Positions 4,311 through 64,000 of a stretch of DNA of 64,000 nucleotides are shown piece by piece. The notes beneath the pieces are model-generated. The model did no database searches. It saw only the letters and a list, made by a program, of their open reading frames with translations, and had not been told where the DNA came from. Position numbers and translations under genes: made by a program. The first letter of the stretch is position 1, and each line of letters begins with the position of its first letter. Source of the DNA: a virus (Duplodnaviria > Caudoviricetes); the IMG/VR virus record IMGVR_UViG_3300032138_000942, positions 1 to 64,000 of that record, one strand, 5' to 3'.

Positions 4311-4322
4311 AATAGGTTGGTA

Positions 4323-16735: not shown

Positions 16736-16738
16736 AAA

Positions 16739-17371: not shown

Positions 17372-17380
17372 AAACTTAAT

Positions 17381-25127: not shown

Positions 25128-25136
25128 GAGAATGGA

Positions 25137-25849: not shown

Positions 25850-26201
25850 AACACCAGAAATGAAATTTGTAAAGAAAGGCTGGGGCCATGAGCTTTGGAT
25901 CGTAAACAAAAAAGAATACTGTGGCAAACTGCTTTTCTTTGAAGAGGGAAAAAGGTGCTCCTGGCACCATCATAAAATTAAGGACGAGGTATTTTACTTA
26001 CAATCCGGCAGACTTTTAGTTAAGTTTTCAGAATATGATGATGTAGATTTAGCCGAAGAGCTTATTTTGGAGCCAGGACAAAACTTCTATATCTATCAGG
26101 GGTTACGTCATCAGATGATCGCTCTGGAAGATTCCGAATTATTTGAGTTTTCGACAGAACATTTCGATTCAGACTCTCACAGAATTGTGAAGGGGGACTG
26201 A
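25827..26201 (+). CDS. cupin (sugar isomerase/epimerase-like)
   Basis: KGWGHE, SxHxHxxKxE, H in the second cupin motif; start may be the ATG at 25860. Confidence 0.8.
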   Translation: MSTSSSNKTPEMKFVKKGWGHELWIVNKKEYCGKLLFFEEGKRCSWHHHKIKDEVFYLQSGRLLVKFSEYDDVDLAEELILEPGQNFYIYQGLRHQMIALEDSELFEFSTEHFDSDSHRIVKGD

Positions 26202-41875: not shown

Positions 41876-43507
41876 ATGAGTATTAAACGCTACATAGCTG
41901 ACGCTGACAACACAATTACGAACGCCTTTAAGGCTAGTCTTACCACTCGTGGAACAGGCTCTAATATGGGCGCCTCTGACGTTTTAGAGGTATTCTCAAT
42001 TTACGGACAAGTATCCAGTTCTGCGCCAGTTGGCTATACTGAGGAATTGGCGAGAATTCTCATTCGCTTTCCAGTTGATGATATCGCCACAGATCGAACT
42101 AATAAAAATATACCAGCCAGTGGAAATGTTTCTTTTTTCCTTAGAATGTACAATGCCAAACACTCTTTTACATTGCCCACTGACATGAAATTGGTTGTTG
42201 CCCCACTTAAGCAGTATTGGGAAGAAGGCTTCGGTCTGGATATGGAAGAATATACTGATCTCACATATGATGGCTCAGGGTCTAACTGGCTTAGAAGGGC
42301 CACCTCTTCTGCAGGAACCCTGAGTTGGGACGGGATCGGAGGAGACTATTACGATCATACCCATCTGGGAACCAACTACACCGTCAACTTTGCTCATGGG
42401 TGGGAAGACATGGAGGTGGATATATCCGGACTAGTTGAGGAGTGGATTGCTGGCACCAAAACCAATCATGGAATAATTATAAAGCTTACTGGATCACAGG
42501 AAGCCTTTTCGGACACCGAGAGTTCAACCGCTGTTCTCCTTAACGACACGGGCTCTAAACGATCTTACTATACTAAAAGATTTTTCGCTCGAACAAGTGA
42601 ATATTTCTTTAAGCGCCCTTGTATTGAGGCTCGCTTCGATGAGTCGATTAAAGATGATCGAGGAAATTTTTATTATAGTAGCTCGTTAGCACCAAAAGAT
42701 GATAATGTGAGTCACCTTTATCTTTATAATTACGTGAGAGGTAAACTGGCCGACATCCCAGGTATTTCTTCGGATTACAAGGGAGAGATCTATGTCTCTT
42801 TCTTCTCGGGGAATTTGGCCAACTCGGCAGCCACCGAGAAGGGAGGCCCCATTGAGTGTGTGGATACCACGGGGTTCGTAAACCAGCCGAATCCGTATGT
42901 CGTGTCAGGCGGCTATGTTTCTACTGGAATTTATTCTGCTTCAGTATGCCTCACGGCAGCATCCGATCCTTTAACACGGATCTACGATGTCTGGTTCACG
43001 GGCAGCATCCAGGTCGGAAACCCGACTATGGACAATGCTATAATTTTTAAAACAGGAAGTTTTGTGCCGAACATTTTGAGTAGTTCCCCCATTTATGAGA
43101 CACCTCGTTACAGCACTAAAATTACTAACTTAAAAACACTTTATGGATCTAATGAGAAGCCTCGTTTGAGAGCGTTTGTCAGAACCGTCGGAGAAGATTA
43201 CAATATTTACACCAGAGTTAACGCCGAGGCACAAAATACTATTATTGAAGACGCTTGTTATAAGGTTTACAGATTGACTGACGATTTAACGGCAGTAAGC
43301 TACGGAACCGGCTCCTCTCCTGGTGTAACAGGGTCAAAAGAAGATTATACTCGCCTTTCTTTTGACGTTTCAGGGGGGTATTTCGACTTTGATATGTCCC
43401 TCCTTGAAAAGGGATATGGTTATGGTATTAAATTCGCTTACTATAACGGAATAGAGTATTTAGAACAACCGGAGATTTTTAAATTTAGGATCGAAGACAA
43501 GTCATGA
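41876..43507 (+). CDS. baseplate/tail-associated structural protein, TGS/SGS-rich
   Basis: beta-rich ORF following gp6-like; ADxDNTI, RILIRF, WEEG.G motifs. Confidence 0.65.
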   Translation: MSIKRYIADADNTITNAFKASLTTRGTGSNMGASDVLEVFSIYGQVSSSAPVGYTEELARILIRFPVDDIATDRTNKNIPASGNVSFFLRMYNAKHSFTLPTDMKLVVAPLKQYWEEGFGLDMEEYTDLTYDGSGSNWLRRATSSAGTLSWDGIGGDYYDHTHLGTNYTVNFAHGWEDMEVDISGLVEEWIAGTKTNHGIIIKLTGSQEAFSDTESSTAVLLNDTGSKRSYYTKRFFARTSEYFFKRPCIEARFDESIKDDRGNFYYSSSLAPKDDNVSHLYLYNYVRGKLADIPGISSDYKGEIYVSFFSGNLANSAATEKGGPIECVDTTGFVNQPNPYVVSGGYVSTGIYSASVCLTAASDPLTRIYDVWFTGSIQVGNPTMDNAIIFKTGSFVPNILSSSPIYETPRYSTKITNLKTLYGSNEKPRLRAFVRTVGEDYNIYTRVNAEAQNTIIEDACYKVYRLTDDLTAVSYGTGSSPGVTGSKEDYTRLSFDVSGGYFDFDMSLLEKGYGYGIKFAYYNGIEYLEQPEIFKFRIEDKS

Positions 43508-46500
43508 GTTTAAAAGACTTATTTAAGCAAGGAAATATTTCAAAAATTCTTGTGGCTAAAAGTGCCGAAGAGATCGGAAAAGAAGCCGAATCCGAGAGAT
43601 ATGTGTGGTCCAGAAAAGAAGAGAGAAACCGCCTTATTCCTCAAATCGACTTCTCGGATCCAAAAAACTTTGCTAAATTTGGTTCTGCTGAAGAATATTA
43701 TGTTCAATCGATTAAGAGAATATACAGCACCTATCCATATGATGGGTCTCGTTATGAAAAGCAGGCTTGGGAAAATAGCTCTTCTTATTTAGACTTATAT
43801 GTTTTCGAGGAGCTTTATCCACGAACCACAGGGCATGCCATCTTTTCTCCCGATAATGCCGGAAACGGATGGGGAACTATTTCCAACACCATTGGACAAT
43901 ACGACCTTCCTTCAGATCAAGAATATATCTTTTTCAAAGGTGGCCCTCATCCTAACCGGAATAGTTCAAAAATTAAAGAAGCCTTCCCCAATTTAGAAAC
44001 CCGGCAGTCGGGAAATGTTGGAGCCAATTTATATGAGTTAGCCGATCACAGAGAATCCAACCTTAAAATTGGAGGAATCGACGGGAACACAGTTGAATTT
44101 TGGCTTAAAAAGCCCAATCTCTTGCCGGATATTAATGACGGAGGCTTTGAAGTTCTCTTTGATTGTTACACCACAAGCAGCGTTTCTTCCAGCACTGACT
44201 ATGCCAGACTGAGAATTGAAATTTCCGGAGCGACCACCGACGACGCTACTGTGGGGGCGACGAGTGGTTCTCCGTTTTATGTTACTTATATGTCGGGAAC
44301 TAATGGCCTCCATCGAGAGCAAATCGGAAACATCACCGCGGAAGATGTGGCTGATGAGAAATGGCACCATTACGCCCTCACATTTAAGAATACGGGAGCT
44401 TTAGGCCCTGTCGAAGATCAACTACCTCCTATTTGGCAAAATAATAGAAAAGATATTCAAGTCAACTTTTATGTAGATGGTCGCTATGATGCCGGAATCG
44501 TTACAGGTTCTAGCGTAGATTATGTAAGTGGCGCCCTGGTGGCAAACATCGGATCCCTCGTGGCAGCGCCCTCGGCCTCCGGCATGACAGACTCGGCAGT
44601 CTTTTCGGCTACCCCTGGTAATGGCACCCTTGTGGATATGGGGTTTATGAAAGGTTATGGAAAACTATCAGGATCTCTGGACGAATTCCGATTTTGGAAG
44701 GAGGGGCGAACAGCGAGAGAAGTTGGATTAAACTGGAAAAGCCCGATTGGTGCCGGAACAAACTTGGATCTGGCCAACACCCAACTCGGAGTCTATTATA
44801 AGTTCAACGAAGGAATAACCCAAACCTCAAGTGTCGACTCGACGGTTATCGACTATTCGGGCCGTGTAACAAACGGCTACTGGACAGGCTATGTGGAAGC
44901 CGCTCGTGCCACAGGTTCGGCAATTGTAGAGTCTTCAGCTTCTGCAGAAGAATTTAAAGACCCAATTTTATACTCTTTCCACCCTAAAGTGGACAGCTTA
45001 GAGTATCATAAAAAATATGAGGGACGAGCTTACGACCTTAACAACCCCGGTAGTTTCTATAGAATGTTTCCGGACTGGATTCTGTCGGAGGACTCCGAAA
45101 GCGGACAGAATTTATTAAAATTAACACAGATAATGTCGAGTTATTTCGACACCTTATATCTACAACTGAAACAACTCCCGGCCATTAAAAATGTCCAATA
45201 TTTAAGCTCTAGTGTTGGGGCAACCGGAAGTTACAAACCTCTTCCTTTTATGGATCGAGTCTTGGAATCTCAAGGTTTTGTTACAGCCGACATGTTTGCT
45301 GACGCCACAATTATAGAAAAATATCTTGATAAAGATGATCACAAACTCTTCACTGAAAAACTGTCGGATATCAAAAATCTAATTTATCAAAACATTCATA
45401 ACAACCTTGTGAACATTTACAAAACTAAAGGAACAGAAAACTCTTTTAGAAACTTTATTCGATGCTTTGGAATAGACGAAGATTTAATTCAGTTAAACAT
45501 CTACACCAATAATCAATCATATGAAATAAAACAAAATTATCGATATCGCTCTGAACGTAAAAATTATATTGACTTCGGAACTTATGGAGATCATGAAGCG
45601 GCTGTATATCAATTTAAATCAGGATCTGCTAGTTCGGGCTTTCTTTCGGCTTCCAAGACAGCGTTTTCGGAATCGGGCATGTCTCAAACTTTTGAGTGTG
45701 AGCTTATTGCTCCGCCACCTCCAAACCCCACAGTTCAGGGAGTCTCTCTATATCCCTATATTACTTCCTCAGTTTTTGGAGTTCAGCAGGTTAATTATTC
45801 CGCGGACGGGACTGTCGATGAAGACGACACCAGTTGGGAGCTTGGTCGAACAGAAGATGATTACGCCAACTTCCAGGTATTTATAGCTCGTCCTGGAGTG
45901 GGCTCAACAACAGGCAAGTTTGTCTTAACAGGCTCAAACGCCAGCGGAATTACAGAACTCACCAGTAGCTATTATGTAGATTTGTATGATGATCGAAAAT
46001 GGAATCTCGCCGTTAGAGTTGTGCCCAAGGCTAGTCCATGGATGGACACCGTGTCGGGAAGCGAACCCCAAGGGGACGAGGATGGTCTTGGATATCGAGT
46101 AGAATTTTATGGGGTAAATTATGATGCTAATACCGTGAGGGACAGTTTTTATTTGACCGCATCTTTAGCCCCACAAGCATCATCGGCTGATACGAATGAT
46201 GCCCGAGGAGATGGCTTCTTACAAAACGGCAAACGAATGTATATCGGAGCTTTAAGGACTAACTTTACAGGAGCAGTGGTTCAACGAACAGACCTCAAAA
46301 TCTCTTCGACGAGAGCCTGGATGGGGAATATTTCCAATGAAGTTGTTAACGCCCATGCTATTGATGCTTCTAACATCGGAACTCTACGCCCTTATGAAAG
46401 CGCCTATTTGTTTGAAAACAGTGCCTCTTACGCCCTCAGCCCGGTGAGCCCGATGTCAAAAACAAACCAGGGAAGCAACCAATATGTCCCAAGTATCGCC

Positions 46501-49500
46501 ACTTTAGCTCTTAACTGGGACTTTAAAACGCTTACTGGCTCTTCAGGCGGCGGAACGTTCTCAGTATTGGACGCTTCTTCTGGATCTACGGCAGATATCG
46601 GTCGTTATGGTTGGTTAGGAAATATTCTAGAAATGCAACACCCAGGAAAGGGAAGCTTTTTCCGAAACAGTCAAACTAACGTTGTCGACACAAATTACTT
46701 AAACTCGGCCAAACAACTTGACCCTGAATCAGTTAATAGCTTGGATATGGTTGAAATATTAAGTCGAGATGACACTTATTTCACCCGAGAGACTCGGCCC
46801 ATTAACTATTATTTCATGCTTGAAAAAAGTATGTATCGAACCATTACGGAGCAGATGTTGAATTATTTCGGAACGATTAAGGATTTTAATGACTTAATCG
46901 GAAGTCCGGTTTATCGCTACAGGAAAGAGTATAAAGCGATGGAAAAACTTCGACAGCTTTTCTTTGAGAAAGTTGGGAACACACCGGATCTCGATAAGTA
47001 TATTGAGTATTATCGATGGCTTGACTCCGCAATTGGAACCATGGCTGAACAACTTTACCCAGCTTCAGCAGACCACACCCAAGGCCTCAAAACAGTTATT
47101 GAAAGCCATGTTTTAGAGAGGAACAAGTATCAGTATAAGTATCCCTCCATCGAACGAGGACGAGACTATGATAAAATCGGAGAAGGGGAGTCCCAAATCC
47201 GATTTGCCGCTGGGCAAACAATGAGAGAGACGGTGGGTAACTGGTTTACTTATGGATATCCCATAAAACTAAATCCTCTTGACCTTGCCGCGGCCCCCAA
47301 CTGGTGGAACGCCCGAGCAGAAAGAGACAAAACACCAGAAATTACTTCGGGAGTGGCCAGTGTTGATGTTCTAAGGGAAATATATAGAAAAATTATCTAT
47401 AACCCCAAGACTTTGGCTTTAGGGGCGTACAACTACAGAAGAGGGACAAAAACTAATTTAAATGATGTTTATAATCCCCCCACGGCCAAGTCCGGACCAT
47501 CCAGAGCTTATCCTCAAACTCGTCTAACTCACGGTTTCGCCAATGGGGCGAACTCATTTAGAGACAGCAGTTCAGATCTTATCAAGCCAGATCTTCAACT
47601 TGAGTCCGGCTCCGTCCCTGACCTGAGATATAATCAGTCACCAGATGTTCAACCAAGCCCCCTTCATGACGTCGATGTTAATCTTGAAAGGTTCCCTAAA
47701 ATTAAAATTGAGCCGAAAATAAATATATTAGATGAGGAGCGAGCAGAACGAAATCAAATTAAAACGATGGAAGGGCTCCCCTCTTTGTATAGTAGTAGTC
47801 TGGGCCTTCGGTTTGCCAATATTCAGCAAGATGTCTCTCATGGCGCTGAGGTCCCCCTCCAAGGTCCTTTTGTAAAAAAATATGTTGGAGGATACGAAAG
47901 TCGGAATGTGCCGATCAGCACAGCATCTCAAGGCTCCTCGGATAGAATCGAAAGATTTAGAATCTCCGCGCCCGCCAGTGATCTAGTTGCTTCAACTGCC
48001 GCTTCTTTGGCTGATATTTTAACATTAGCTGGCTTCAGCGATAATGATAAATTTACAGTTAACATACCCTCCGCCATGGGAGGCACCGGCACAGATATAA
48101 CTATCAAAATGGTGGGTGGAACCCCATCAGCCGCCACCTCGAACCAAGTAGAAATTAGCACAGCGGGAACCGTCGCCGCAATTCTTGCCCGATTTGTTAT
48201 TGCTATTGCTGGAGGCACTCCGTCGCCTTCCACCTCTGTCGCATATGGAGCGGGATCCGGCGATGTAACTAATGGTGTGGCAGGCATCACCGCCGCCCTC
48301 GGGACCAGCCCGACGCTAACTGTAACTGCAACTAATACGGGACGAGCAGGAAATGACATTATTTTCACAGATGTTGTGGGAACAATGGTCGCTGGTGGAT
48401 CCCACGGATCATCCCCGGCCTATCTGATCGGTGGCGTCGGCGGCGATGTTTATATTTACCCCCCAACCAAGACAAACGCTGGCGTTGAGAACTTACACTT
48501 GCCTCGTGCTGATATTAATCGAGGAACTCGACGACCTTACAATATTCGTAATATCCAACAATTAACAGCTTCCGCCTTACAAACATCGACGGTGCTCGGA
48601 AATTACGAAGAGAACTATCAAATTGTAATGACATCAGGTCGAAGCATCAACGACCCATGGTTTGCTAAAAACTCCGGCAGCATCGGAAGCACCACTCCTG
48701 AGATGCCATTTTTAACTGGAACATTGAATTATGAAATTCCAGTGAGAACAGTTGTTAAATCAATTATAGTGGAGCGCTTTTCTAGTCCGGGAGGGTTTGA
48801 AGTTCAATCACTTGGCTATCTCGACCCTCAAGCTGAAGAAAAATCTGTCTACAACGCGTTACCCTTCAAGAATCGAATGGTTCTAAACGGATCAGGCAGT
48901 TCAGATTGGACAACCACAGAAGACAACGACAGAACTCATTTAGGAATTTATACAAACATTCATTCCGCTTCCGGCGATGGTTATAATCTACTCTCTAGTC
49001 GCCATTGTGGCAAATTCGGAATTGATAGTGTTTATGGAACGATCCGAGCCAATGACTATGACACCGTTCCATCATATCAGAACGTTCCTCGAAACACCTT
49101 ACACACTCTTAAATATAGTAATACGGCCTTCAGTGACGCTCTTGTGGAGTACAACTCTCTAAACTACATCACCGCCTCAGTTTATAATAACCTCTTTTAT
49201 AATGCCCCCATTCCCCAAAGTGAGCTTCAATATGCTTGGATCAGCGCATCATTAGAAAGCGCTTCTATTCACCCGTTGGTGGGCTATACATCAAATGGTC
49301 GAGTGTTTAACGGGCTAGTATCGGGATCCAATGGGTTTGAAGATCCCATTCACTTTTATAAAGGAGAGGAAGCCTCAGCTTATTACGGCGGATATCCCTC
49401 CGATTTGGTCGGCCTTAATACTTTAGTGGTCGACACTATTTTAACAGCAAGTAATCTTATCTCAGCATCGACGACCACAGATTATAGAAACACCGCTTTC

Positions 49501-52500
49501 GCCACTGTAACTGATGGGCAGCAATTCATGGTTTTGATGAATCATAGAAACGCGGGCCTACAGGCCCCGAGTTGGAAGTTAACTTTTAAATCTTCTAATC
49601 CGTTGGTGAGAAAACAACGAGAGAATAACTTAATTAATATTCTCGAATATAAAACACTTCCCAAGCCTTATAAAGGGGACACAACGACTAATCTGAATTT
49701 AGATAACTTAAATCAAATACCACAGACAAGAGTCGTGAGACAATACATCGTGCCAGCCCCGACAAGCAAGTTTAAGCCACTAACGTTGACTCTTGTGAAT
49801 AAAGATGGCACAGGCCCCGAGATGACCGTAAAGACTACTTATTCCAATAATTTTGATTTTATGACCACCCCAGAAATCGATTTGAAACTTGGCCTGAGTC
49901 AAACTAATCAGCAGGAGTTTGACACAATCAAAAATTCAGGCGATCTTTCAATTTGTAAATTGATTTATCCGGAGACGATTTATCCTAAAGAGCAATACAC
50001 TTATTTGGCAAAGGTTCGTGGAAGAATTTCTTACTTCGAGTCCAGCGCAAGTGTTGACTTTAATCGGCAATTGGGGACACAAAGAACCTTCTGGAGAGAT
50101 ACTCCTAAAAACAGAAGACGAAGCAGCGACCATCAAGCTGTAAATTCACAAGGAATTCTTCTTTATCAAGGAGTTGGTTCGGCTTCTGTGGACGCGGGAT
50201 CAGGAGAGCTTTATAATCAATTCCGAGAATATTCGTGTGCCCTGTCTGTTTGGCCTCTTGATGCCGGCTATTTAAGTAACTCTTACGGTGAAGAATTTGC
50301 CAACTATTGGTATGACCCCGCGGGAGGAGACACTCTTGCCCTAGAGCCCCCTCAAGGGGCCTGGTACGACCAGCCTAACGGTGAACTTCTGACGCCCACA
50401 ATCAACCAGCTTTTGGCAGCAGTTTCACAAGAAGAGTTCCCAAGCGTGGATGATGACTATGATTGGAGAGGCCCCGTAACGGCGTCCCAGCAGCTTCTCT
50501 ATCCTAATAAATGGACGTCCAATCTCTCCGAGTCTGACGGAACTGTGGGAAGTAATCGTGGATATGACCAACGATATTTAACTTATAACTTTTATCGAGC
50601 AGACTCTCAATCCGGCAATCGTCCCTGGCTAGATTCATATGATGAATACGCTTCGGACATTAGAGTTATGGCTCAAGGCCACACTGTTCTGCCCGAGTTT
50701 AGAATTTCCGAACATATGGAATATTATATTGACAACGGGTTTGACTTCAATAATAAGTTTTTAACTTTGGCAGGAGCAAATATATCGGCCAGCGCCAATA
50801 CTGCCACTTCTAGTTATAATGAAGACTTCTTTAAGATATACTCTCATTCTGACTTCATGAAACACTTTGCCGCCCTGGATACTGCCGACAACAAGCTTTC
50901 GAGAATGACACTTAAATGCCACGGAATTAAAAAATTGCTTCCATATAATGGATTTTATCCAGCCCTTCGAACCACTCAATTAGGGAGTATGTTCTCTCAG
51001 TCATTTGGTCCATATATTTCAGGCTCCACGGCGGCTCAAACCGGCTCTTACGATGGGGAACGTATGAAGTCTATTCTTCAGCCTTTCTTCGCTCCTGGGA
51101 TCATGTACAACACAATTAAATCAGGTATCGCTGTTGACTTTCCCGTTTATACTGGCTCGATAGGGGGCGGAAGCTCATTCCTGGGCCGGTTCAGAAGACT
51201 GAGTGTGGCAGAGGGGTCTTTTTATAATTATAGAATGCCGTTTGAAGCCATTGTTGAACCCCAAAGATATCTCCCAGTCGACAACCCAACGGATTCCACC
51301 TCCGCTGCCATTTCCTTTCTTTATAATTGGACCGGCAGCACAGGCGTGAATCCCCCTATTTTTCCAGAACAAATATATGGGTCATGGACAGGAGAGTCGG
51401 ACTATAATTATAATTTGGCGATGAACAACTTCTTGGCGGAAGTTCCCAAGTTTTTCTTGAAAGACGGGAGCTTCACAACTTTTACATCAAAACCAGAAAA
51501 TCAATTTAAAACAATGAAGTCTGGGTCGACTTATTATATGGATGTCGTATTGGCTAAAACCTCTAAAATGATAATGGCTCAAGGACTGGGCAATGTTCCC
51601 CTTTTAGAGGTTACAGCGAGCGACGACAGCAGCAAAGGCCTTGTGGGTAATGATTTCCATGGACAGATCTTTGGACCAGCGTGTGAATACTTTAGAACAT
51701 CTGATGATATTCCTCATCCGAATTATGCTTCTGGCCAAGGTGCATATTATGCCGACACCATTTGTCAGGCAGATCCAGGGTTCGCCCCTCATACTCCCCC
51801 TTATTTTTACGGAGACGCCATAGCCAGAGTTTCTTTCACGCCAGAAAATCATGTGGTTCTTTTGGAAGGGGAAAGTAAATTCTTTACTTTAGATGAGATA
51901 TTAGCAGGTTGTAAAATCGACACCATTTACACATCGAGTTACACAGAGAATACCAATTGGCTACAGTTTGCTGTAAACAACTCTTATCCCGCTGGCTTAT
52001 CACAAATGAGATTATCCTCCTCAGTTAACCTTTTTGGAAAAAGCAGTATTAAAAAGGTAACCTATCAAGCTAATGCTCAAGAAGAGGGCAAGTTTGTGGC
52101 AGACACTGCCGAGGATCCCTCCGATTCGTCTTTTGATTTGTGGACCATTAGTCCTAAATTCGAATGTCCAGTTATAAATGTCTCATCGTCCACAGCTTCG
52201 GGCTCAGCCTACTCAACGTTGAAAGAAGCCTCCTTTGGTTATCAAACTGGCGATAGTGACGATCTATCAAACAAGCAAGGTCAATTTGGAGACATCACCT
52301 CAGTTAAATCTGTGTGGGGCCAGTATGGCACCCCCCCAAGTTCGTCCGAGGGAATTTTCCTCAAGCTCAAAGAAAGCTATCCAGACGTCTTAGAGGATCC
52401 GTCTTCAGGAGCACAGACCACGGGCTCGCTCATTGACATCTGTGGATTTCAACAGAGCACGAAAAGAGTTGGAGAGCTATCAGCAGAAAAAACAATTTCT

Positions 52501-53259
52501 GAAGCTGTTGTGGCAGTTCCTTTCGTTCAAAAAGCCGGGAAAAGAAAGTTCTTCCCTGTGTTAAAAACTCAGGTTAAATATGTTTTGGGAACGGCCACGA
52601 AGGGGGAAACCACGAAATTAACCAATAACGGGAAACTGCCGGGAGAGTCTATTACAACGATGGTGACGGCTTTACAAAAATATGTGCTCCCTCCTCATCT
52701 AGATTTCATCAATAACAAATCAGTTCAACCTTATGTTGCTTATGTTTTCGAGTTCGAACACAAACTAGACAGAAATGATTTATCGGACATTTGGCAAAAT
52801 CTCATGCCACAGATTGCCAAGACGGCTCAAGAGCAGACTGTTACTCTTTCTCACTCAATGGACAAGAACGAATTCTTCGCTGGATGCTCCATCCCACCAG
52901 AAACTCAATGGATGATCTTTAAGGTCAAGAGGCGAGCTTCATTTAATTATTTTGCGGCGACAGCGGATTCCACAGACGATGATCGATTTGCTTTCCAGTT
53001 CGAGGTTGGCGGAGAGAAGAAGGTTCCAGATTATAGTTATAACTGGCCTTATGATTATTTCTCTCTCGTTGAATTGGCAAAGATTGACGCCGAAGCTGAG
53101 TTTGACTTTCCTCATTGTAAGCCCCCTCCTGGAACACCACCCCCACCATCAGCAGAAGCAGGGGGAGATTCCCAAGATAACGGCACCAGTCCACCACCGC
53201 CCCCAGATCCACCCACTCCTCCTTCCCCCGGTAATGTTGGTGGCACCGTAGTCTATTAA
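43504..53259 (+). CDS. 3251-aa virion protein with LamG/ConA-like domain and baseplate-wedge-like YKxKGT motif
   Basis: TVEFW.K, WHHYA.T, FYVDG, G.LDEFRFW; IYKTKGTENS; Pro-rich C-terminus. Confidence 0.75.
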   Translation: MSLKDLFKQGNISKILVAKSAEEIGKEAESERYVWSRKEERNRLIPQIDFSDPKNFAKFGSAEEYYVQSIKRIYSTYPYDGSRYEKQAWENSSSYLDLYVFEELYPRTTGHAIFSPDNAGNGWGTISNTIGQYDLPSDQEYIFFKGGPHPNRNSSKIKEAFPNLETRQSGNVGANLYELADHRESNLKIGGIDGNTVEFWLKKPNLLPDINDGGFEVLFDCYTTSSVSSSTDYARLRIEISGATTDDATVGATSGSPFYVTYMSGTNGLHREQIGNITAEDVADEKWHHYALTFKNTGALGPVEDQLPPIWQNNRKDIQVNFYVDGRYDAGIVTGSSVDYVSGALVANIGSLVAAPSASGMTDSAVFSATPGNGTLVDMGFMKGYGKLSGSLDEFRFWKEGRTAREVGLNWKSPIGAGTNLDLANTQLGVYYKFNEGITQTSSVDSTVIDYSGRVTNGYWTGYVEAARATGSAIVESSASAEEFKDPILYSFHPKVDSLEYHKKYEGRAYDLNNPGSFYRMFPDWILSEDSESGQNLLKLTQIMSSYFDTLYLQLKQLPAIKNVQYLSSSVGATGSYKPLPFMDRVLESQGFVTADMFADATIIEKYLDKDDHKLFTEKLSDIKNLIYQNIHNNLVNIYKTKGTENSFRNFIRCFGIDEDLIQLNIYTNNQSYEIKQNYRYRSERKNYIDFGTYGDHEAAVYQFKSGSASSGFLSASKTAFSESGMSQTFECELIAPPPPNPTVQGVSLYPYITSSVFGVQQVNYSADGTVDEDDTSWELGRTEDDYANFQVFIARPGVGSTTGKFVLTGSNASGITELTSSYYVDLYDDRKWNLAVRVVPKASPWMDTVSGSEPQGDEDGLGYRVEFYGVNYDANTVRDSFYLTASLAPQASSADTNDARGDGFLQNGKRMYIGALRTNFTGAVVQRTDLKISSTRAWMGNISNEVVNAHAIDASNIGTLRPYESAYLFENSASYALSPVSPMSKTNQGSNQYVPSIATLALNWDFKTLTGSSGGGTFSVLDASSGSTADIGRYGWLGNILEMQHPGKGSFFRNSQTNVVDTNYLNSAKQLDPESVNSLDMVEILSRDDTYFTRETRPINYYFMLEKSMYRTITEQMLNYFGTIKDFNDLIGSPVYRYRKEYKAMEKLRQLFFEKVGNTPDLDKYIEYYRWLDSAIGTMAEQLYPASADHTQGLKTVIESHVLERNKYQYKYPSIERGRDYDKIGEGESQIRFAAGQTMRETVGNWFTYGYPIKLNPLDLAAAPNWWNARAERDKTPEITSGVASVDVLREIYRKIIYNPKTLALGAYNYRRGTKTNLNDVYNPPTAKSGPSRAYPQTRLTHGFANGANSFRDSSSDLIKPDLQLESGSVPDLRYNQSPDVQPSPLHDVDVNLERFPKIKIEPKINILDEERAERNQIKTMEGLPSLYSSSLGLRFANIQQDVSHGAEVPLQGPFVKKYVGGYESRNVPISTASQGSSDRIERFRISAPASDLVASTAASLADILTLAGFSDNDKFTVNIPSAMGGTGTDITIKMVGGTPSAATSNQVEISTAGTVAAILARFVIAIAGGTPSPSTSVAYGAGSGDVTNGVAGITAALGTSPTLTVTATNTGRAGNDIIFTDVVGTMVAGGSHGSSPAYLIGGVGGDVYIYPPTKTNAGVENLHLPRADINRGTRRPYNIRNIQQLTASALQTSTVLGNYEENYQIVMTSGRSINDPWFAKNSGSIGSTTPEMPFLTGTLNYEIPVRTVVKSIIVERFSSPGGFEVQSLGYLDPQAEEKSVYNALPFKNRMVLNGSGSSDWTTTEDNDRTHLGIYTNIHSASGDGYNLLSSRHCGKFGIDSVYGTIRANDYDTVPSYQNVPRNTLHTLKYSNTAFSDALVEYNSLNYITASVYNNLFYNAPIPQSELQYAWISASLESASIHPLVGYTSNGRVFNGLVSGSNGFEDPIHFYKGEEASAYYGGYPSDLVGLNTLVVDTILTASNLISASTTTDYRNTAFATVTDGQQFMVLMNHRNAGLQAPSWKLTFKSSNPLVRKQRENNLINILEYKTLPKPYKGDTTTNLNLDNLNQIPQTRVVRQYIVPAPTSKFKPLTLTLVNKDGTGPEMTVKTTYSNNFDFMTTPEIDLKLGLSQTNQQEFDTIKNSGDLSICKLIYPETIYPKEQYTYLAKVRGRISYFESSASVDFNRQLGTQRTFWRDTPKNRRRSSDHQAVNSQGILLYQGVGSASVDAGSGELYNQFREYSCALSVWPLDAGYLSNSYGEEFANYWYDPAGGDTLALEPPQGAWYDQPNGELLTPTINQLLAAVSQEEFPSVDDDYDWRGPVTASQQLLYPNKWTSNLSESDGTVGSNRGYDQRYLTYNFYRADSQSGNRPWLDSYDEYASDIRVMAQGHTVLPEFRISEHMEYYIDNGFDFNNKFLTLAGANISASANTATSSYNEDFFKIYSHSDFMKHFAALDTADNKLSRMTLKCHGIKKLLPYNGFYPALRTTQLGSMFSQSFGPYISGSTAAQTGSYDGERMKSILQPFFAPGIMYNTIKSGIAVDFPVYTGSIGGGSSFLGRFRRLSVAEGSFYNYRMPFEAIVEPQRYLPVDNPTDSTSAAISFLYNWTGSTGVNPPIFPEQIYGSWTGESDYNYNLAMNNFLAEVPKFFLKDGSFTTFTSKPENQFKTMKSGSTYYMDVVLAKTSKMIMAQGLGNVPLLEVTASDDSSKGLVGNDFHGQIFGPACEYFRTSDDIPHPNYASGQGAYYADTICQADPGFAPHTPPYFYGDAIARVSFTPENHVVLLEGESKFFTLDEILAGCKIDTIYTSSYTENTNWLQFAVNNSYPAGLSQMRLSSSVNLFGKSSIKKVTYQANAQEEGKFVADTAEDPSDSSFDLWTISPKFECPVINVSSSTASGSAYSTLKEASFGYQTGDSDDLSNKQGQFGDITSVKSVWGQYGTPPSSSEGIFLKLKESYPDVLEDPSSGAQTTGSLIDICGFQQSTKRVGELSAEKTISEAVVAVPFVQKAGKRKFFPVLKTQVKYVLGTATKGETTKLTNNGKLPGESITTMVTALQKYVLPPHLDFINNKSVQPYVAYVFEFEHKLDRNDLSDIWQNLMPQIAKTAQEQTVTLSHSMDKNEFFAGCSIPPETQWMIFKVKRRASFNYFAATADSTDDDRFAFQFEVGGEKKVPDYSYNWPYDYFSLVELAKIDAEAEFDFPHCKPPPGTPPPPSAEAGGDSQDNGTSPPPPPDPPTPPSPGNVGGTVVY

Positions 53260-53306
53260 TTTAGTTGATGTTAAAAGTTATAAAGCTGGATAATTATTGA
53301 AAGAAT

Positions 53307-54320
53307 ATGAAGTTTTTTAATCCTAAAGAAGAAGTTATTGATATACAGCTTAGCCCATATGGGAAACGTCTGCTGGCCAAAGGGGAGCTTAAGCCCGTTT
53401 ATTATGCTTTTTATGATGATGACATTCTATATGACGGAGCACTCGGTGGAATAACTGAGAATCAAAACGAGGCTCAAGAGAGGATTAAAAACAACACTCC
53501 AAGATTACAAACACAAGGTGTTCATGAAAGTATCCGTTCTACAATTGGACAGAACTTAGAAATATTAGATAATCAATATCAATATCAGACTTTCAAAGAA
53601 AGTGAACATGTTCTTGGCCTTCCATTGGGGCAGTCTTCTTTATCTGGAAATGTCGCTCCGGCTTGGAATATAAAATATTATCATAATAAACTTAACGAAT
53701 GTAACTCTTATATCACTAGCTCTGGCGGGACTTTAAGGGTCCCCCAATTGGATTCCAAGATTGAATACACCACATATATCTCTTATTTAACACCAGGTGG
53801 CGGGGCTCCCACAGAAGAAATGGCCCGACGACAACAAAATTATATAGCCAATAGTTTTCCAAGCTTAGATGAGGAGCCAGGTGAAAGTGATCCGAGCCCA
53901 CCAGGCCCTGGAATGTATCTGGAAAATTATATATTCGATGATTATTCTAAGATATTTGTTAAAGAAGACGGCATCTTTTTAGACGTTAGAGAGGCAAATA
54001 CTCAATATCTCCGAGAGAATTTTGATATTGAAGTTTATATAAGTGATATCGAAGGGGGCGAAGAAAAAAACACCAGTCAACTTTATTTTAGAGGAGACGT
54101 ATTGTCGGACCCAACTCCGGCTAATGTCGAATACTGGTTAGAAATCGCCGCCGACGGAGAAATACCAGAAGCAGCCTATTGCCAATTACAGATCCCATTA
54201 ACAAAGAAAGAAACAATGGGGGATTCAGTATATGGATGTCCTGATATAAGTGGAGATAAGGGCGGAACCACCTTGAGAAACCTCTATGCTCAGGTTGAGC
54301 CCGACGAGGAGCCCTGCTAA
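53307..54320 (+). CDS. structural protein, N-terminus related to 60831..61796
   Basis: D.QLS.YGKRLLA...YYAFYDDDILY versus DAVLT.TGRMRLA...KFALGDDEINY; ATAATTA motif upstream. Confidence 0.6.
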   Translation: MKFFNPKEEVIDIQLSPYGKRLLAKGELKPVYYAFYDDDILYDGALGGITENQNEAQERIKNNTPRLQTQGVHESIRSTIGQNLEILDNQYQYQTFKESEHVLGLPLGQSSLSGNVAPAWNIKYYHNKLNECNSYITSSGGTLRVPQLDSKIEYTTYISYLTPGGGAPTEEMARRQQNYIANSFPSLDEEPGESDPSPPGPGMYLENYIFDDYSKIFVKEDGIFLDVREANTQYLRENFDIEVYISDIEGGEEKNTSQLYFRGDVLSDPTPANVEYWLEIAADGEIPEAAYCQLQIPLTKKETMGDSVYGCPDISGDKGGTTLRNLYAQVEPDEEPC

Positions 54321-60200: not shown

Positions 60201-60750
60201 GATAGATGTACACAATAATTTGTCTAATCCGTCACCAATCTATGAAATAGAACTGATTAATGATTTGGGGACAATCTATATCGTTACTAAAATATATGAC
60301 TTCCCGACAGAAGTAAAAGTGGGATCTAAATCAGCAAAAAGGTTTATCGCCATCCAGCCCGCTTTAAGCCAGCGGCTTCTAAATATGTCCGCGACAGGAC
60401 TTGAATCAGGCGAAAACGGCGAGATGACCACGGATGGGAAAAGCATGGAAATAAAATTGGGTCTCGATAATGAACTTCTGTTTGGGGGAAATAAGAGGAT
60501 TAAGATACGACTTAATTCCAAAAAGACCAATCGAAAGATCGACTTCAATCTGGACTTTAATTTAAAAAATGTTCAAACCGAGGAGAGCTTAGAACCCGAT
60601 GAATGGAAGTGGGCACCTGATAGTGCCACTACTGGGCAAATACCAGCATCCCCTCCACCCCCGTGTGGAGAAGGTCAGATTTATAATGATGAAACGGGAG
60701 AGTGTGAAGACATCGTGACCACCCCAGAGCCCGATGACGATAAGTGCTAA
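57247..60750 (+). CDS. 1167-aa hypothetical (probable structural) protein with Fn3-like segments
   Basis: DTRVKYGEKYQY and D.L.PN.KYYY.FRS.D...N.SNPS; Pro/Cys C-terminus. Confidence 0.65.
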   Translation: MNGYNPPFDLKKAFKEFVEKTEASKEFKKVETNPGKKGPAVVEKTEASKEFKKVETAPGKNNNVSPQDIPFETIAQIAEFNAKPLPQAPSVFGPRFFNAGTLVNDNTHPDVWPMLKTSLQLDSTNFKYIAWSQPSKLVKVDHGRLYTGNTWTTSRPLNAQPGSQASLLLMKDLLGPQQNYGAPNGVTIVTKDFVDVVKLPFTLEIKDAIVYLNENTFSKLYENNNMAERLVSLYYGTPSYTVKVWANPSGLGWSLDNTVHEPDPSTGVGTIVGDKNTCVKESFLFRVPPNTPNDTGPYRDQLQALRYLRTKVAQSSGATNGMWYDHVCEYDTPAFTDNFQEITSQLTTERSLKIESSATYNYYKPGYEKVIAPTEFSHNSLPDYNIMAAHQRWSPSQKAMLETFDNDESMVNNSDFNAYYKYVSLEAQLDSDIEKPFANYGSLQGNTWYYLDKWTKVMEAGYPNQWFDKKYSNLTFPAFAMMDHCLKELPGGTINQYPMFNHIRLKLPNSKPVSPNTTEDSPMKWNYKMFTGVEDGIKRQSLDLAYLSRFNKYQEGTKAGGPQVYPTFVQGDSAVNPWSEAQYWKDLSPVKGNYVQPYKSGLEWKYTTTGGHDGDLHTAMDFIKFLGNLLKFGSRLYGYTYGLLNDPWPDSLPFLMSNNKNVEVALQMIEPNWIGGHNNTLDNWLDRLTPYLRRTRSFSEILEGKLAPSITLGFKILKYGFDAQGNRTPDPISTYFLSNTNDLKEQKNKYFDFYDTRVKYGEKYQYDIVGLHLILGTRYAYTHVGDKVIEGDPTGDIGPLNSWHKFTAEVTSWPDIKIVELPYQNNIVLRMMDKPPLAPEIEPVPFKGVDNKLLWLIRPQYGSRKEVPISILPQDTGIFNKQYEAQYGGVVGQGEFSSGTGQMAEQEQWAEKQQGFAEIGITPLEFKGDDLTQKYQMFRLSTPPKSYGSFANAELITEISSERSTSTSFLDTLTPNHKYYYTFRSIDVHNNLSNPSPIYEIELINDLGTIYIVTKIYDFPTEVKVGSKSAKRFIAIQPALSQRLLNMSATGLESGENGEMTTDGKSMEIKLGLDNELLFGGNKRIKIRLNSKKTNRKIDFNLDFNLKNVQTEESLEPDEWKWAPDSATTGQIPASPPPPCGEGQIYNDETGECEDIVTTPEPDDDKC
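57296..57425 (+). repeat. in-frame intragenic duplication, 72-bp period
   Basis: 43-bp identical copies at 57296-57338 and 57368-57410, continuing imperfectly (VEKTEASKEFKKVETxPGK twice). Confidence 0.9.
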
Positions 60751-60781
60751 AGGATAATAATTAATTTTTGTGTTACAAGAA

Positions 60782-60806
60782 CTATTTAAGAGGACGAACC
60801 TACTTA
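60782..60806 (+). promoter_or_regulatory. tandem candidate late promoters CTATTTA / CTACTTA
   Basis: 60782-60788 and 60800-60806, upstream of AGAGGAG SD and the ATG at 60831. Confidence 0.6.
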
Positions 60807-60830
60807 TAGTATAAAAAGAGGAGTAAAAAC

Positions 60831-61796
60831 ATGGGGTTTCTTGATAATTCCGGAGATATTATTTTAGATGCTGTTTTGACAGACACGGGCCGAATGAGGC
60901 TCGCTAAGGCTGATGGCAGTTTTAAGATTACAAAATTTGCTCTGGGTGATGATGAAATAAATTATGAGCTTTACAGGAACGCTAACAGCCCAAAGGGTGC
61001 CCACCCCAGCGGCAGCGCTTATTACGATCTAGATATTAAGCAGACTCCGGTTTTAGAAGCTTTCACCAACAATACGTCTCTTTTAAAATCTAAATTAGTA
61101 ACCCTGGCAAACATGAACCACACATATCTGCCTGTTTTGAGGTTGAATGAGGTGGTGGCCGAGAATGCCAGAAACCAATCTACGACCCAGGCTAACGAAA
61201 AGTTTGTTGTAACCGTCAACGACACTACCTCGAAGTTTGTGCCAACAGGCCTCAGAGAGGCGGGCGATCCAGTTGGTATTATTGACGGCGTTACTGGTGA
61301 GGGAGTCACAATTAGAGTCGACCAAGGTCTTGATACTCAGGACATTAGTCCAACTCAGGCTCTCGACCCAGATCTTTATGAAAGTCAATATTTGATAGAG
61401 ATGGATAATCGGTTTGGCTCCATAACGAGTCCCACTTCTCCGGCATCAGCAATGGCTTATTCTTTTCTTGATGACGACAACATCGCCGCTTATTATGTTA
61501 CAGCCACCTCACCTGGCGACTATGTGATGCCGAATGGTAACACCCTGACAACAGAAGAGGCAAGCCAGATAATTTCAGGCCCACGAGGATCCATTTTACA
61601 ATTTAAGCTTTTGGCGAGTACGGATCTTCAAACAAGCAACACCCTCTTTTTGAAAATGGGGGTTAACGACCAAACCTGGACAGATTCAGTCCCCACCGCG
61701 GAGGACGTCCGATACATTGACACCACGGTCAGAGTAACGGGTCTTACAACAGGCTACAGAATCGACATCCCAGTAAGATTTATTAAATTAAGGTAA
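60831..61796 (+). CDS. structural protein (tail-collar/fibre-attachment-like N-terminus)
   Basis: MGFLDN..DAVLT..GR..LA....F.ITKFALGDDEINY; strong SD. Confidence 0.65.
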   Translation: MGFLDNSGDIILDAVLTDTGRMRLAKADGSFKITKFALGDDEINYELYRNANSPKGAHPSGSAYYDLDIKQTPVLEAFTNNTSLLKSKLVTLANMNHTYLPVLRLNEVVAENARNQSTTQANEKFVVTVNDTTSKFVPTGLREAGDPVGIIDGVTGEGVTIRVDQGLDTQDISPTQALDPDLYESQYLIEMDNRFGSITSPTSPASAMAYSFLDDDNIAAYYVTATSPGDYVMPNGNTLTTEEASQIISGPRGSILQFKLLASTDLQTSNTLFLKMGVNDQTWTDSVPTAEDVRYIDTTVRVTGLTTGYRIDIPVRFIKLR

Positions 61797-61801
61797 GAAT
61801 T

Positions 61802-62857
61802 ATGGCAAACGTATTTAAAAGTGTAAACGCTGACGACATCACAGTTACAAGAACCCCTCTTCATGAGGCCATCCCACTTTCGGGAACAATCGTATCGGGA
61901 ACATATCCCGAAGATCAAGGGACCTCACACACCAATATCAAGAATTATTCCCACGGAATATTCGAGTCGGTTTATGACTATCCCTATCTCAGTTCATCGG
62001 CCAATCATATTTTTGACCTTAGTTTTGGATATAGTGCTAATTCTACCATTTCCCAGTCGGTATCACCAGATGTGACCGGATATGCTGGCTTTCAGCAGGA
62101 CAAAAAGATTAATATTTACAATGAGATGGCCCAGGTTTTGATGGGGCACGATGCCACAGGGTCCATTAAAGAGTTCAAAATCCCTGGGGGCGATTATATT
62201 CGGGAAGCAGTCTTTGTTAGTTTTGCTCGGCTTTTATCTAAAGATGAAATTGACAAGAACAACTGGTCGTGGAAGCTGAATAAAAAGCTTGCTTATGCCT
62301 GGACAACAGCCCGAGCAGAGATGATTCTTGATGAGATAACTCTCCCCACTTCCAATAACGAAACAGTGTTCTATACAGACTCGCCAGCAGGCGAATATTC
62401 CGTTTTGTCTAGTGCCATGTCTGGAAATGTTGGACTACTGTTCTATCAGGCCGGCATTGCTGTTCTCGGAACATCTTCTATTTCTCAGTTGACCGGAACG
62501 ATTCTTGGTGGCGGAAACATTTATAACACCATGATTAGTTCTTCGATCAGCGCCTCTTGTGATAGTTTCCGACACCACTGGGCAACACAGAACTTCAACA
62601 ATACGACAGAGTTGAATTCAACAATTTATTTCTGTCGAGCAAACCACAACCAGTTCAATTATAGTGCTAATCCCACCTATTTGACAGGTAGTAAAATTCG
62701 AGTAAAGGCAAGTAGTCTGGACCAGCCAGTCTCATATGTCACCACTGTCGGCCTTTATAGTGCTGATAATGAACTACTCGCCACAGCGAAACTATCCGAG
62801 CCCCTCAAAAAGACTCCTGATACTGAATTGACGCTGAGAGTTCGACTGGACTACTAA
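61802..62857 (+). CDS. structural protein (tail-collar-like C-terminus)
   Basis: FNYS.NPTY...YVTTVGLY...NELLA.AKLS.P.KK......RVRLDY. Confidence 0.65.
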   Translation: MANVFKSVNADDITVTRTPLHEAIPLSGTIVSGTYPEDQGTSHTNIKNYSHGIFESVYDYPYLSSSANHIFDLSFGYSANSTISQSVSPDVTGYAGFQQDKKINIYNEMAQVLMGHDATGSIKEFKIPGGDYIREAVFVSFARLLSKDEIDKNNWSWKLNKKLAYAWTTARAEMILDEITLPTSNNETVFYTDSPAGEYSVLSSAMSGNVGLLFYQAGIAVLGTSSISQLTGTILGGGNIYNTMISSSISASCDSFRHHWATQNFNNTTELNSTIYFCRANHNQFNYSANPTYLTGSKIRVKASSLDQPVSYVTTVGLYSADNELLATAKLSEPLKKTPDTELTLRVRLDY

Positions 62858-62885
62858 AGTGCTAAAAACTTTATCGATCACCTAA

Positions 62886-62892
62886 CTATTTA
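62886..62892 (+). promoter_or_regulatory. candidate late promoter CTATTTA
   Basis: 26 nt before the GTG at 62919. Confidence 0.6.
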
Positions 62893-62918
62893 ATTTAACA
62901 AGGTATAGGTGGATTTAG

Positions 62919-64000
62919 GTGTCTTATTATAGGTTCAAAGAAAACGATATTTTTACCAATACTATAGTGGCTCACCCCCACAGTAGTTTTATGATCTACA
63001 GCGGGAGCGTTTACTATAGAAACACTCCATATGAGAGTGGAAGTATTTTTTATGGGAATGTCACACATGTTCCGGTCGGAGCCATTAGTCTTTACGAAGT
63101 GAACGTTGACCGCCCCGAGAGCGATCATGATTACGATTATGAGAACAACACCGGAACCAAGACCATGATTCATCCCTTTGTGGTGAAAAGTGGTGACAAC
63201 ATCAAATTTAAAACCATCTCCACAGGGTCTTACAATGAAGAAGACTGGGGATCAACTCTCACATCGAGCTTCAATTACCCCCTCTCAGCCAGTCTATCTA
63301 GAGATTTATATCCTGAAAAGCATTTGGCCAGTGCAATTAATTACAGCGCCCAACACAATCTGCAGCTGTCACCTCATGAGTATGATGCTTATAGCGTTGA
63401 TTCGGAATCCGAAGACGCCGGGATCGTTACAGTTTCTAGTTCATATATAGAAGCCCTAAAGAACACTTTGAACTATTACACCCCTCTGAGCGACCAATAC
63501 GCTTTTACTTCTTCTGCTCGAAACGGCGCCGACACAACTGATCAATTCCCGACAGGAACACCCTATTGGGATAAAGGCGTTCAACCCATCAACCTGATTA
63601 GCATCCCTTCGATTTATTATGGAGAGTCAATAAAAAGAGGCTCAGTGAGTGTTAAGTTTTATATTAGTGGAACTCTGGCTGCTGAATGTGCTGATGTTTA
63701 TGAAAATGGAGAATTAATTGAGGTAAGCGGGACTTACGACCGCTTCGAATCGGGGTCTATTGCAGGAGTCGTGCTTTATAATGAAGGTTTTCTCTTACTG
63801 ACAGGCAGTTGGGACATCAGCGCTGGCCATCAAGCACCTTATACTGGAGGCTCCGCCACGAGCCCTTCATGGCTTTACTGGGGCGTTGGGATCACTTCAA
63901 GCCTCAATGCCACCGGATCCCTTGTTCCCGCTGGTTATCAAATAGGCTCAAAGGCAACTTTTAATGGAAGTGTGGACTACACTAAATCCCCCGGATATAA
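62919..64000 (+). CDS. SGS/TGS-rich structural protein, runs off the window (not in the ORF track)
   Basis: Translated by hand from GTG 62919: MSYYRFKENDIF... with no stop to 64000; GVVLYNEGFLLL resembles GLLFYQAGIAVL in 61802..62857. Confidence 0.8.
   Translation, partial: MSYYRFKENDIFTNTIVAHPHSSFMIYSGSVYYRNTPYESGSIFYGNVTHVPVGAISLYEVNVDRPESDHDYDYENNTGTKTMIHPFVVKSGDNIKFKTISTGSYNEEDWGSTLTSSFNYPLSASLSRDLYPEKHLASAINYSAQHNLQLSPHEYDAYSVDSESEDAGIVTVSSSYIEALKNTLNYYTPLSDQYAFTSSARNGADTTDQFPTGTPYWDKGVQPINLISIPSIYYGESIKRGSVSVKFYISGTLAAECADVYENGELIEVSGTYDRFESGSIAGVVLYNEGFLLLTGSWDISAGHQAPYTGGSATSPSWLYWGVGITSSLNATGSLVPAGYQIGSKATFNGSVDYTKSPGY

Follow-up and report, generated by a model that had tools for sequence, protein, structure and literature searches.

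We analysed a window of 64 kb (the whole stretch of DNA under study, positions 1 to 64,000), which is the first part of the 123-kb IMG/VR contig IMGVR_UViG_3300032138_000942, a contig of an uncultured aquatic T4-like phage (Caudoviricetes) with an estimated completeness of 70%. Our results concern a short tripeptide, [ST][GAS]S, which is enriched in a subset of the virion proteins of this phage, and a pair of family-4 glycosyltransferases (GT4a and GT4b), which may use this tripeptide as an acceptor for O-glycosylation. All the large open reading frames (ORFs) of the window lie on the + strand. The window starts with a PIN-PhoH protein, an ATLF-like protein and a PD-(D/E)XK nuclease, followed by a sugar island of ~19 kb (7745-27166). 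After the island come a 699-aa protein that contains an amidase, a 2512-aa protein, a 131-aa ORF, a gp6-like wedge protein and the motif-rich proteins. Among cultured phages, Flavobacterium phage vB_FspM_immuto (hereafter immuto), Microcystis phage Mel-JY01 and Rhodothermus phage RM378 are the closest by capsid protein, with T4 and the cyanomyoviruses far more distant. The proteins compared in the window were:

32065..39603, + strand: p2512, a 2512-aa virion protein, internal negative control
40038..41870, + strand: gp6-like baseplate wedge (PHROG baseplate wedge subunit), internal negative control
41876..43507, + strand: p543, a motif-rich protein of 543 aa, directly 3' of the gp6-like wedge gene
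43504..53259, + strand: p3251, a giant motif-rich virion protein of 3251 aa
61802..62857, + strand: p351, a virion protein of 351 aa whose enrichment is mild here but clear in its orthologues
62919..64000 in the window, continuing to 64430 on the contig, + strand: p503, a 503-aa protein, the motif-richest of all

Neither DNA nor protein searches matched p543 or its locus to the phage collection, and nothing from Pfam or PHROGs matched the motif-rich proteins. The initial annotation had counted by hand about 50 of the tripeptides in p3251, 13 in p543, 11 in the first 360 residues of p503, 6 in p351, none in the wedge protein and a handful in p2512, and our recount agreed exactly or nearly with these figures. 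Expectations were taken from composition-preserving shuffles, performed either over the whole protein or within 40-residue blocks. Thus, p3251 carries 55 motifs against 13.5 expected (z 11.7), p543 carries 13 against 2.4 (z 7.1), the first 360 residues of p503 carry 11 against 3.1 (z 4.7; 17 against 3.4 at full length) and p351 carries 6 against 2.2, which is marginal in this phage (z 2.7). The gp6-like wedge has 0 motifs against 1.2 and p2512 has 6 against 6.4, the chance level. When the four motif-rich proteins were pooled, 85 motifs were found, compared to 21.3 expected from the global shuffles and 22.0 from the 40-residue block shuffles (z ~14). The enrichment that the initial annotation had suspected was therefore borne out, and local richness in Ser and Gly, which the block shuffles preserve, was rejected as its source.

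The scan of all tripeptides in the four proteins, which was not biased towards any of them, put TGS first (21 versus 2.9), with SAS and SGS next, so the motif was not cherry-picked. Ser is needed at position 3, since [ST][GA]T occurs only 15 times against 9.5. Moreover, a preceding hydrophobic residue, which had also been noticed at the outset, sharpens the signal (45 versus 6.7). The full pattern is hydrophobic-[ST]-[GA]-S-hydrophobic, with Ser less frequent at the middle position. Other orderings of the same residue classes gave z values of 3-4, save for the reverse ordering (z 7.4), which shares SGS, SAS and SSS with the motif. Codon use is mixed at all three positions, which places the selected signal at the level of the protein, and a DNA-level motif was rejected; together with the survival of the enrichment under local shuffling, this agrees with the earlier proposal that the motif is under selection. 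As had been described, the sites are scattered through sequence that is not of low complexity: they lie in non-repetitive regions, and BLAST found no internal repeats in p3251. PPP was the second most enriched tripeptide in the four proteins (8 versus 0.6).

On the whole contig, 7 of ~110 proteins are enriched, and all seven are virion proteins: p3251, p543, p503, p351 and three more that are encoded outside the window:

90048-91784 of the contig: T4-type major capsid protein
92498-93811 of the contig: neck/adaptor-like protein
95247-98345 of the contig: tail sheath

Together, these seven proteins hold 111 motifs against 28.1 expected, to which the capsid protein contributes 6 (versus 1.5), the neck protein 5 (versus 1.3) and the sheath 9 (versus 3.8). 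The remaining late proteins (38 versus 44.1) and the early proteins (18 versus 13.5) are at expectation, the latter figure also showing no avoidance of the motif in non-virion proteins. The large proteins p975 and p1167 are, like the gp6-like wedge and p2512, at or below chance. The initial annotation had placed the motif on baseplate and tail subunits; its restriction to a subset of virion proteins was upheld, but that subset also takes in a capsid insertion, the neck and the sheath. The six capsid motifs are confined to residues 160-250 and lie outside the HK97-type core (profile match 280-561); the nine sheath motifs are all within residues 157-679, and nearly all of them precede the conserved C-terminal core, which begins at 666. 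We infer that these variable, motif-bearing parts of the capsid and sheath proteins are outer domains.

BLAST detected no similarity among the seven enriched proteins, save for a 43-aa C-terminal stretch of p351 and p503, and no internal repeats, and a shared repeated domain was accordingly rejected as the origin of the signal. The last ~43 residues that p351 and p503 have in common (33% identity, E 6e-5) may be an attachment or assembly module. Note that the sequons of other systems are not enriched in the seven proteins: N-x-[ST], the sequon of HMW1C/NGT, occurs 58 times against 69.0, and D-[ST]-[AILVMT], the O-glycosylation sequon of the Bacteroidota, 25 times against 24.5. S-G-x-G is at chance.

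Structure prediction was of limited use here. The AlphaFold2 (AF2) model of p543, built from 9 sequences, was unusable (mean per-residue confidence, pLDDT, of 38.8). In the AF2 model of p503 (pLDDT 64), 76% of the motif residues are in coil, compared to 63% of all residues, and most of the motifs are found in loops or at the edges of strands, 9 of the 17 being in low-confidence segments. Foldseek found no match to this model in the PDB, and no PDB sequence matched p543 (searched as a profile), p503 or an immuto fibre.

The motif is retained in relatives, although its positions turn over. All 14 IMG/VR homologues of p543 (42-98% identity) keep 12-17 motifs; at aligned sites TGS, SAS, TAS, TSS and SSS interchange, and further sites are gained and lost. 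The orthologues of p3251, p543, p351 and p503 are also enriched in three longer related contigs, where those of the gp6-like, 975-aa and 1167-aa proteins are not. Likewise, the gp6-like orthologues of nine other genomes carry 0-2 motifs. The giant proteins found at the position of p2512 in relatives, which BLAST does not link to p2512, show no significant excess (12 versus 7.1, 6 versus 6.6 and 3 versus 3.5). The p3251 orthologues contain 21, 19 and 44 motifs (z 4-9); in the one from the related genome G004, 25 of the 44 are off the positions used by this phage, and about half of the orthologue motifs are at lineage-private positions. Across p3251, motif density does not correlate with conservation (rho 0.10). 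The p351 orthologues are clearly enriched (z 4.1-4.6), with 8 motifs against 2.1 in the related genome G001, 11 against 3.2 in G004 and 9 against 2.1 in Mel-JY01.

The p503 family, which comprises 886 representative clusters, gave the largest sample. The best 150 of these 886 representatives (38-59% identity) are all above expectation, with 1556 motifs against 365 and z>3 in 142 of the 150. In an alignment of 37 diverse members, six conserved columns hold 40% of the motif instances; after masking of these columns, 244 motifs against 58.6 remain (4.2-fold). In the family, [ST][GA]S is enriched 5.15-fold and [ST][GA]T 1.75-fold, and [ST][GA][NDQE] is depleted (0.71). A hydrophobic residue is 11-fold enriched after the motif and 9-fold before it, with no excess of charged residues after it. 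Finally, five motifs of the capsid insertion are absent from a 58%-identical relative and were gained here. The interchange of motif variants, the private sites, the excess that survives masking and the gains in the capsid protein suggest that the motif itself is selected and that hydroxyl residues are strictly required, rather than that a few fixed sites have been inherited.

The ~19-kb island opens with the two GT4 genes, behind which lies a cassette of other sugar genes:

7745..9016, + strand: GT4a, a soluble family-4 glycosyltransferase of 423 aa, proposed priming enzyme (Pfam Glycos_transf_1 and GT4-conflict)
8965..10263, + strand: GT4b, a family-4 glycosyltransferase of 432 aa, predicted partner of GT4a (Pfam GT4-conflict and Glycos_transf_1)
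10260..27166, + strand: variable cassette of sugar-nucleotide and tailoring genes (Pfam and NCBIfam)

Judging from their conserved residues, both GT4 enzymes look catalytic. In GT4a, E290-x7-E298, R202 and K207 are invariant in 15 genomes; in GT4b, E296-x7-E304 and R208-K209-N210 are invariant in 11 genomes, the RM378 copy alone being degenerate. Among relatives, the identity of GT4a is 58-61%, compared to 35-50% for the baseplate proteins of these same relatives, and that of GT4b is 43-47%. GT4b always lies directly downstream of GT4a, and in the relatives the pair always follows the PhoH/nuclease genes. GT4a with an adjoining GT4b was found in 12 of 13 related contigs >100 kb (E 1e-183 to 1e-202), including all four that are at least 90% complete, and in the cultured phages immuto, RM378 and Mel-JY01; the one long contig without the pair is only 56% complete. 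In RM378 there is no sugar cassette next to the pair, and in immuto the pair is accompanied by ~8 kb of sugar genes.

A model of the GT4a-GT4b complex scored 0.86, compared to 0.40 for the best control; 58 of 80 solved complexes attained the mark set for this score, as did 2 of 110 mismatched pairs. Across runs at least 97% of the contacts agree, the pLDDT of the partners is at least 88, and the conserved C-terminal tail of GT4a lies against GT4b residues 264-272. The modelling thus supports the prediction that GT4a and GT4b bind each other. The solved sequences nearest to GT4a are BshA-like enzymes and a chlorovirus glycosyltransferase (E ~1e-5); the match to the chlorovirus enzyme B736L is marginal (E 4e-5).

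Some variation was seen around the pair. In four relatives (L026:14662-16644, L039:327-2315, L236:1499-3475 and L237:899-2872), GT4b continues into an additional, fused C-terminal domain of ~230 aa, giving 657-662 aa in total; by eye, the extra domain of the G001 GT4b looks GT2-like. The GT4a homologue of Mel-JY01 (PP395634.1 83444-84917) matches in two frames and is annotated as two glycosyltransferases, which could reflect a frameshift, a sequencing error or a split gene. As for the genes that precede the pair, the 440-aa protein at 4317-5639 is a PIN domain fused to PhoH, 54-60% identical in relatives. The 226-aa protein at 5940-6620 weakly matches PF07737, the family of the anthrax lethal factor N/C-terminal domain; three relatives keep it (39-43% identity) beside the PD-(D/E)XK nuclease and the pair.

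The cassette encodes GT2, GT11, a CgeB-like glycosyltransferase, WecB, a formyltransferase, a GNAT (acetyl) transferase, and FkbM and other methyltransferases, together with a GDSL esterase, a DegT aminotransferase, five SDR epimerases/dehydratases, a heptose-type kinase, an adenylyltransferase, a phosphatase and a cupin. The island holds the two GT4 enzymes plus at least four further glycosyltransferases, and the cassette reaches 25 genes. Its content is partly common with that of G004 and hardly with that of G001 or G003. In 16 related genomes (which include G001, G003, G004, G006 and G008-G018), the stretch between GT4a and the next conserved gene, a homologue of 27976-28668, measures 6.4 to 24.5 kb. 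From these comparisons, the position behind the pair is fixed, and the sugar genes that occupy it behave like an exchangeable cassette.

Three of the cassette genes, namely those for a heptose-7-phosphate-kinase-like protein (23175-23927), a heptose-1-phosphate adenylyltransferase-like protein (25137-25529) and a capsule-type phosphatase (25526-25849), suggest that the phage may make a nucleotide-heptose or a related sugar. Despite these heptose-type genes, neither a GT9-type heptosyltransferase nor a Maf domain was found among the island proteins. The island formyltransferase (12432-13193) is of the PF00551 family; in immuto, a formyltransferase of this family, DpdN, has been proposed to formylate preQ1 in DNA (10.1101/2023.04.13.536721).

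No island enzyme has a transmembrane segment, and Pfam and NCBIfam detected no priming phosphoglycosyltransferase, flippase, polymerase or transporter family among the island proteins. In support of the initial annotation, which had taken the phage's cytoplasmic glycosyltransferases between 7.7 and 27.2 kb as the writers, the enzymes are therefore soluble and free of membrane and export parts. However, only the two GT4 genes are kept in relatives, the other ~17 kb being exchangeable, so the likely writer is the GT4 pair and not the whole island.

The initial annotation had also expected motif density to co-vary with the GT4 pair across phages. We compared phages with and without the pair by the genome-wide ratio of observed to expected motifs and by the number of strongly enriched proteins:

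This contig: pair present; observed/expected 1.94; 4 strongly enriched proteins
immuto: pair present; observed/expected 1.70; 5 strongly enriched proteins
RM378: pair present; observed/expected 1.80; 3 strongly enriched proteins
Mel-JY01: pair present; observed/expected 1.57; 9 strongly enriched proteins
T4: pair absent; observed/expected 1.07; 1 strongly enriched protein
S-SSM7: pair absent; observed/expected 1.21; 1 strongly enriched protein
LR756511: pair absent; observed/expected 1.24; no strongly enriched protein
XacN1: pair absent; observed/expected 1.22; 2 distinct strongly enriched proteins

The sheath orthologues follow the same division, with 43 motifs against 18.7 where the pair is present and 8 against 6.3 where it is absent. 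The co-variation was thus positive, but all the pair-bearing phages belong to one clade, so this is effectively a single contrast that represents one evolutionary event. Tetrasphaera phage TJE1 encodes a distant GT4 (24% identity) beside a small sugar cluster and shows no motif excess (26 versus 23); so remote an enzyme cannot be equated with the pair, and TJE1 is therefore uninformative as an independent lineage. Two fibre-like proteins of immuto (L041/L042; 97658-100819 and 135075-136196) carry 60 and 17 motifs in periodic runs of SGSFSGSF..GDGSxLTG and of [ST]AS[YF]xx hexads, which, of all our observations, hint most clearly at a structural repeat made from this tripeptide.

We propose that the tripeptide is a candidate O-glycosylation acceptor tag on a subset of the virion proteins, written by GT4a-GT4b and extended by the variable cassette, a proposal for which we see about as much reason for belief as for doubt. 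It draws on the enrichment of the motif and its specificity, the turnover of its sites, the conservation of the pair, the predicted binding of the two enzymes and the lack of membrane or export parts; the mechanism itself we infer throughout. Late in infection, a soluble GT4a-GT4b heterodimer would draw on a nucleotide sugar of the host or of the phage and would add the first one or two sugars to a hydroxyl of the tag, probably that of the invariant Ser at position 3. The acceptors would be folded or assembling subunits in the cytoplasm. The exchangeable cassette downstream would then make unusual sugars and extend and decorate the chain, so that related phages would differ in their glycan. 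In its wider form, the proposal is that the aquatic T4-like clade (RM378, immuto and many uncultured marine phages) writes a glycan code with a heterodimer, a five-residue sequon and lineage-specific glycans; this we regard as tenable, though leaning towards doubt.

Several observations weigh against the proposal of a glycosylation tag. The contrast between phages with and without the pair comes down to the one clade just mentioned, and no clade member lacking the pair was found, the one pair-less contig among the 13 related contigs >100 kb being 56% complete. LR756508 has GT4a and yet a single strongly enriched protein and a ratio of 1.22 (400 of its 484 kb examined). The sheath and capsid proteins of RM378 are weak in the motif, and in immuto the motif occurs in periodic fibre-like repeats (SGSF, TASY hexads) that look structural. 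In our phage, the long tail fibre is not enriched (7 versus 5.3), though it would be expected to be the most exposed protein. Several p503 motif sites lie in the most conserved core segment, such as the nearly invariant LLTGSW. Finally, according to a review (PMC12645811), the known stepwise cytoplasmic O-glycosyltransferases, such as the flagellin enzyme Maf, have no defined sequon, so a defined tag would be new.

In the main alternative, a structural explanation, the motif would be a favoured strand or strand-edge solution of the outer domains and fibres of this clade, with the first hydrophobic residue pointing in, S/T out, the small G/A in, Ser out and the next hydrophobic residue in, and the GT4 pair and its cassette would act elsewhere, on targets such as a glycolipid of the host envelope on its cytoplasmic face, or a small molecule. 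The hydrophobic flanks on both sides (9-11-fold), the periodic SGSF/TASY repeats of immuto and the six conserved p503 columns, some of them in the best-conserved and best-modelled segment, all suit this explanation, as do the limitation of the glycosyltransferase association to one clade and the generic character of the GT4 enzymes, whose nearest solved relatives are the BshA-like and chlorovirus enzymes at E ~1e-5. However, the seven enriched proteins have no detectable similarity or internal repeats, and other large virion proteins (gp6-like, p2512, p975 and p1167) are at or below chance, as are the giant structural proteins of T4, LR756511 and XacN1; in S-SSM7 one of seven large proteins is enriched (23 versus 10.4, z 4.2). 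Moreover, an outward-facing site should accept other polar residues, but [ST][GA][NDQE] is depleted and Thr at position 3 is far less favoured than Ser (1.75 versus 5.15), and the excess remains at non-conserved positions, with new motifs arising in variable insertions. We therefore consider a purely structural motif rather unlikely, though deserving of serious attention.

The statistics reveal selection and a strict hydroxyl requirement and are silent on the reader, so the tag could be read by another factor, through phosphorylation or acylation of Ser, docking of a chaperone or decoration protein, or a hydroxyl face that binds host polysaccharide. The acyl-, methyl- and formyltransferases of the island would fit such a role, but these tailoring enzymes are part of the variable cassette and RM378 lacks them; no kinase or other enzyme of protein modification was seen to follow the motif, and the two GT4 enzymes are the only strictly conserved candidate writers beside a soluble sugar pathway. 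This explanation appears improbable to us. A compositional or counting artefact of Ser/Thr/Gly-rich proteins would find its footing in the somewhat high Ser content of the enriched proteins (9.8-13.9%), but p2512, with 8.7% Ser, is at chance, both the composition-keeping and the 40-residue local shuffles leave z at ~14, and other orderings of the same residues, save the reverse one, reach little; we give an artefact practically no weight. As regards the acceptor, no ThyA-type enzyme (PF00303) was found in the complete RM378 and Mel-JY01 genomes or on this contig, and liquid chromatography-mass spectrometry (LC-MS) of immuto DNA detected dA, dC, dT and fdPreQ1 only (bioRxiv 10.1101/2023.04.13.536721), which together make DNA an unlikely acceptor for the sugar.

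To our knowledge, glycosylation of virions by phage enzymes is documented for the mycobacteriophages only, and without a sequon there; nothing comparable to the system proposed here was found in the literature searched. The mycobacteriophage glycans are described as being on the C-termini of capsid and tail-tube subunits (Freeman et al. 2023, as presented in PMC12619734). As far as that account goes, the two cases would be alike in that soluble phage glycosyltransferases, sometimes together with methyltransferases, O-glycosylate virion proteins in the cytoplasm and produce a glycan coat. They would differ, on the same account, in that the candidate acceptor here is an internal tripeptide in baseplate-region, neck, sheath and capsid-insertion sequence, and in that the phage is an aquatic T4-like one with a GT4 pair and a cassette of up to 25 genes, known from sequence alone. 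Neither our capsid protein nor the putative tail tube (the 181-aa ORF that follows the sheath) has a C-terminus rich in Ser or Thr.

The GtfA/GtfB system, which acts on the serine-rich-repeat adhesins of Gram-positive bacteria (PMC6973325), offers another parallel, as a conserved two-protein complex of GT4 type primes cytoplasmic Ser/Thr O-glycosylation there, a variable number of extender glycosyltransferases follows (the pair stands alone in S. aureus, as it does here in RM378) and the acceptor consists of Ser-small-Ser units. In our phage the complex is a predicted one. Unlike GtfA/GtfB, the phage enzymes have no DUF1975 domain (Pfam) and match no GtfA/GtfB model (NCBIfam), GT4b retains its catalytic motif (GtfB is a chaperone with no catalytic activity), and the predicted interface uses the C-terminal tail of GT4a. 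The tripeptides here are also dispersed singly in non-repetitive virion proteins, in contrast to long low-complexity repeats, and no accessory Sec export is present.

Chloroviruses such as PBCV-1 (PMC4691112, PMC7019647) likewise encode soluble glycosyltransferases that modify their own capsid protein at non-canonical sites, independently of host secretion. In contrast to our proposal, their glycans are N-linked and they are eukaryotic viruses with a different capsid fold; the sole sequence link is the marginal match of GT4a to B736L. Finally, the proposed tagging resembles the work of the cytoplasmic stepwise transferases of flagellins (Maf) and autotransporters (AAH/TibC; PMC12645811) in being a lipid-independent cytoplasmic O-glycosylation of many Ser/Thr residues on exposed parts of a self-assembling structure, where the hydrophobic context matters.

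If the glycosylation tag is real, a very common group of aquatic phages would coat its particles with self-made, lineage-variable glycans at predictable sites, which would give phages a serotype-like surface diversity and would provide the first defined sequon for a stepwise cytoplasmic O-glycosyltransferase. A short portable tag with a two-enzyme writer could possibly also be of use in glycoengineering. Since three cultured relatives have both the pair and the motif, the question is directly testable by mass spectrometry. For the biology of these phages, such a coat would bear on particle stability, on host recognition and on escape from recognition by hosts or grazers, and it would explain why this aquatic T4-like clade carries polysaccharide gene clusters, which have long been puzzling.

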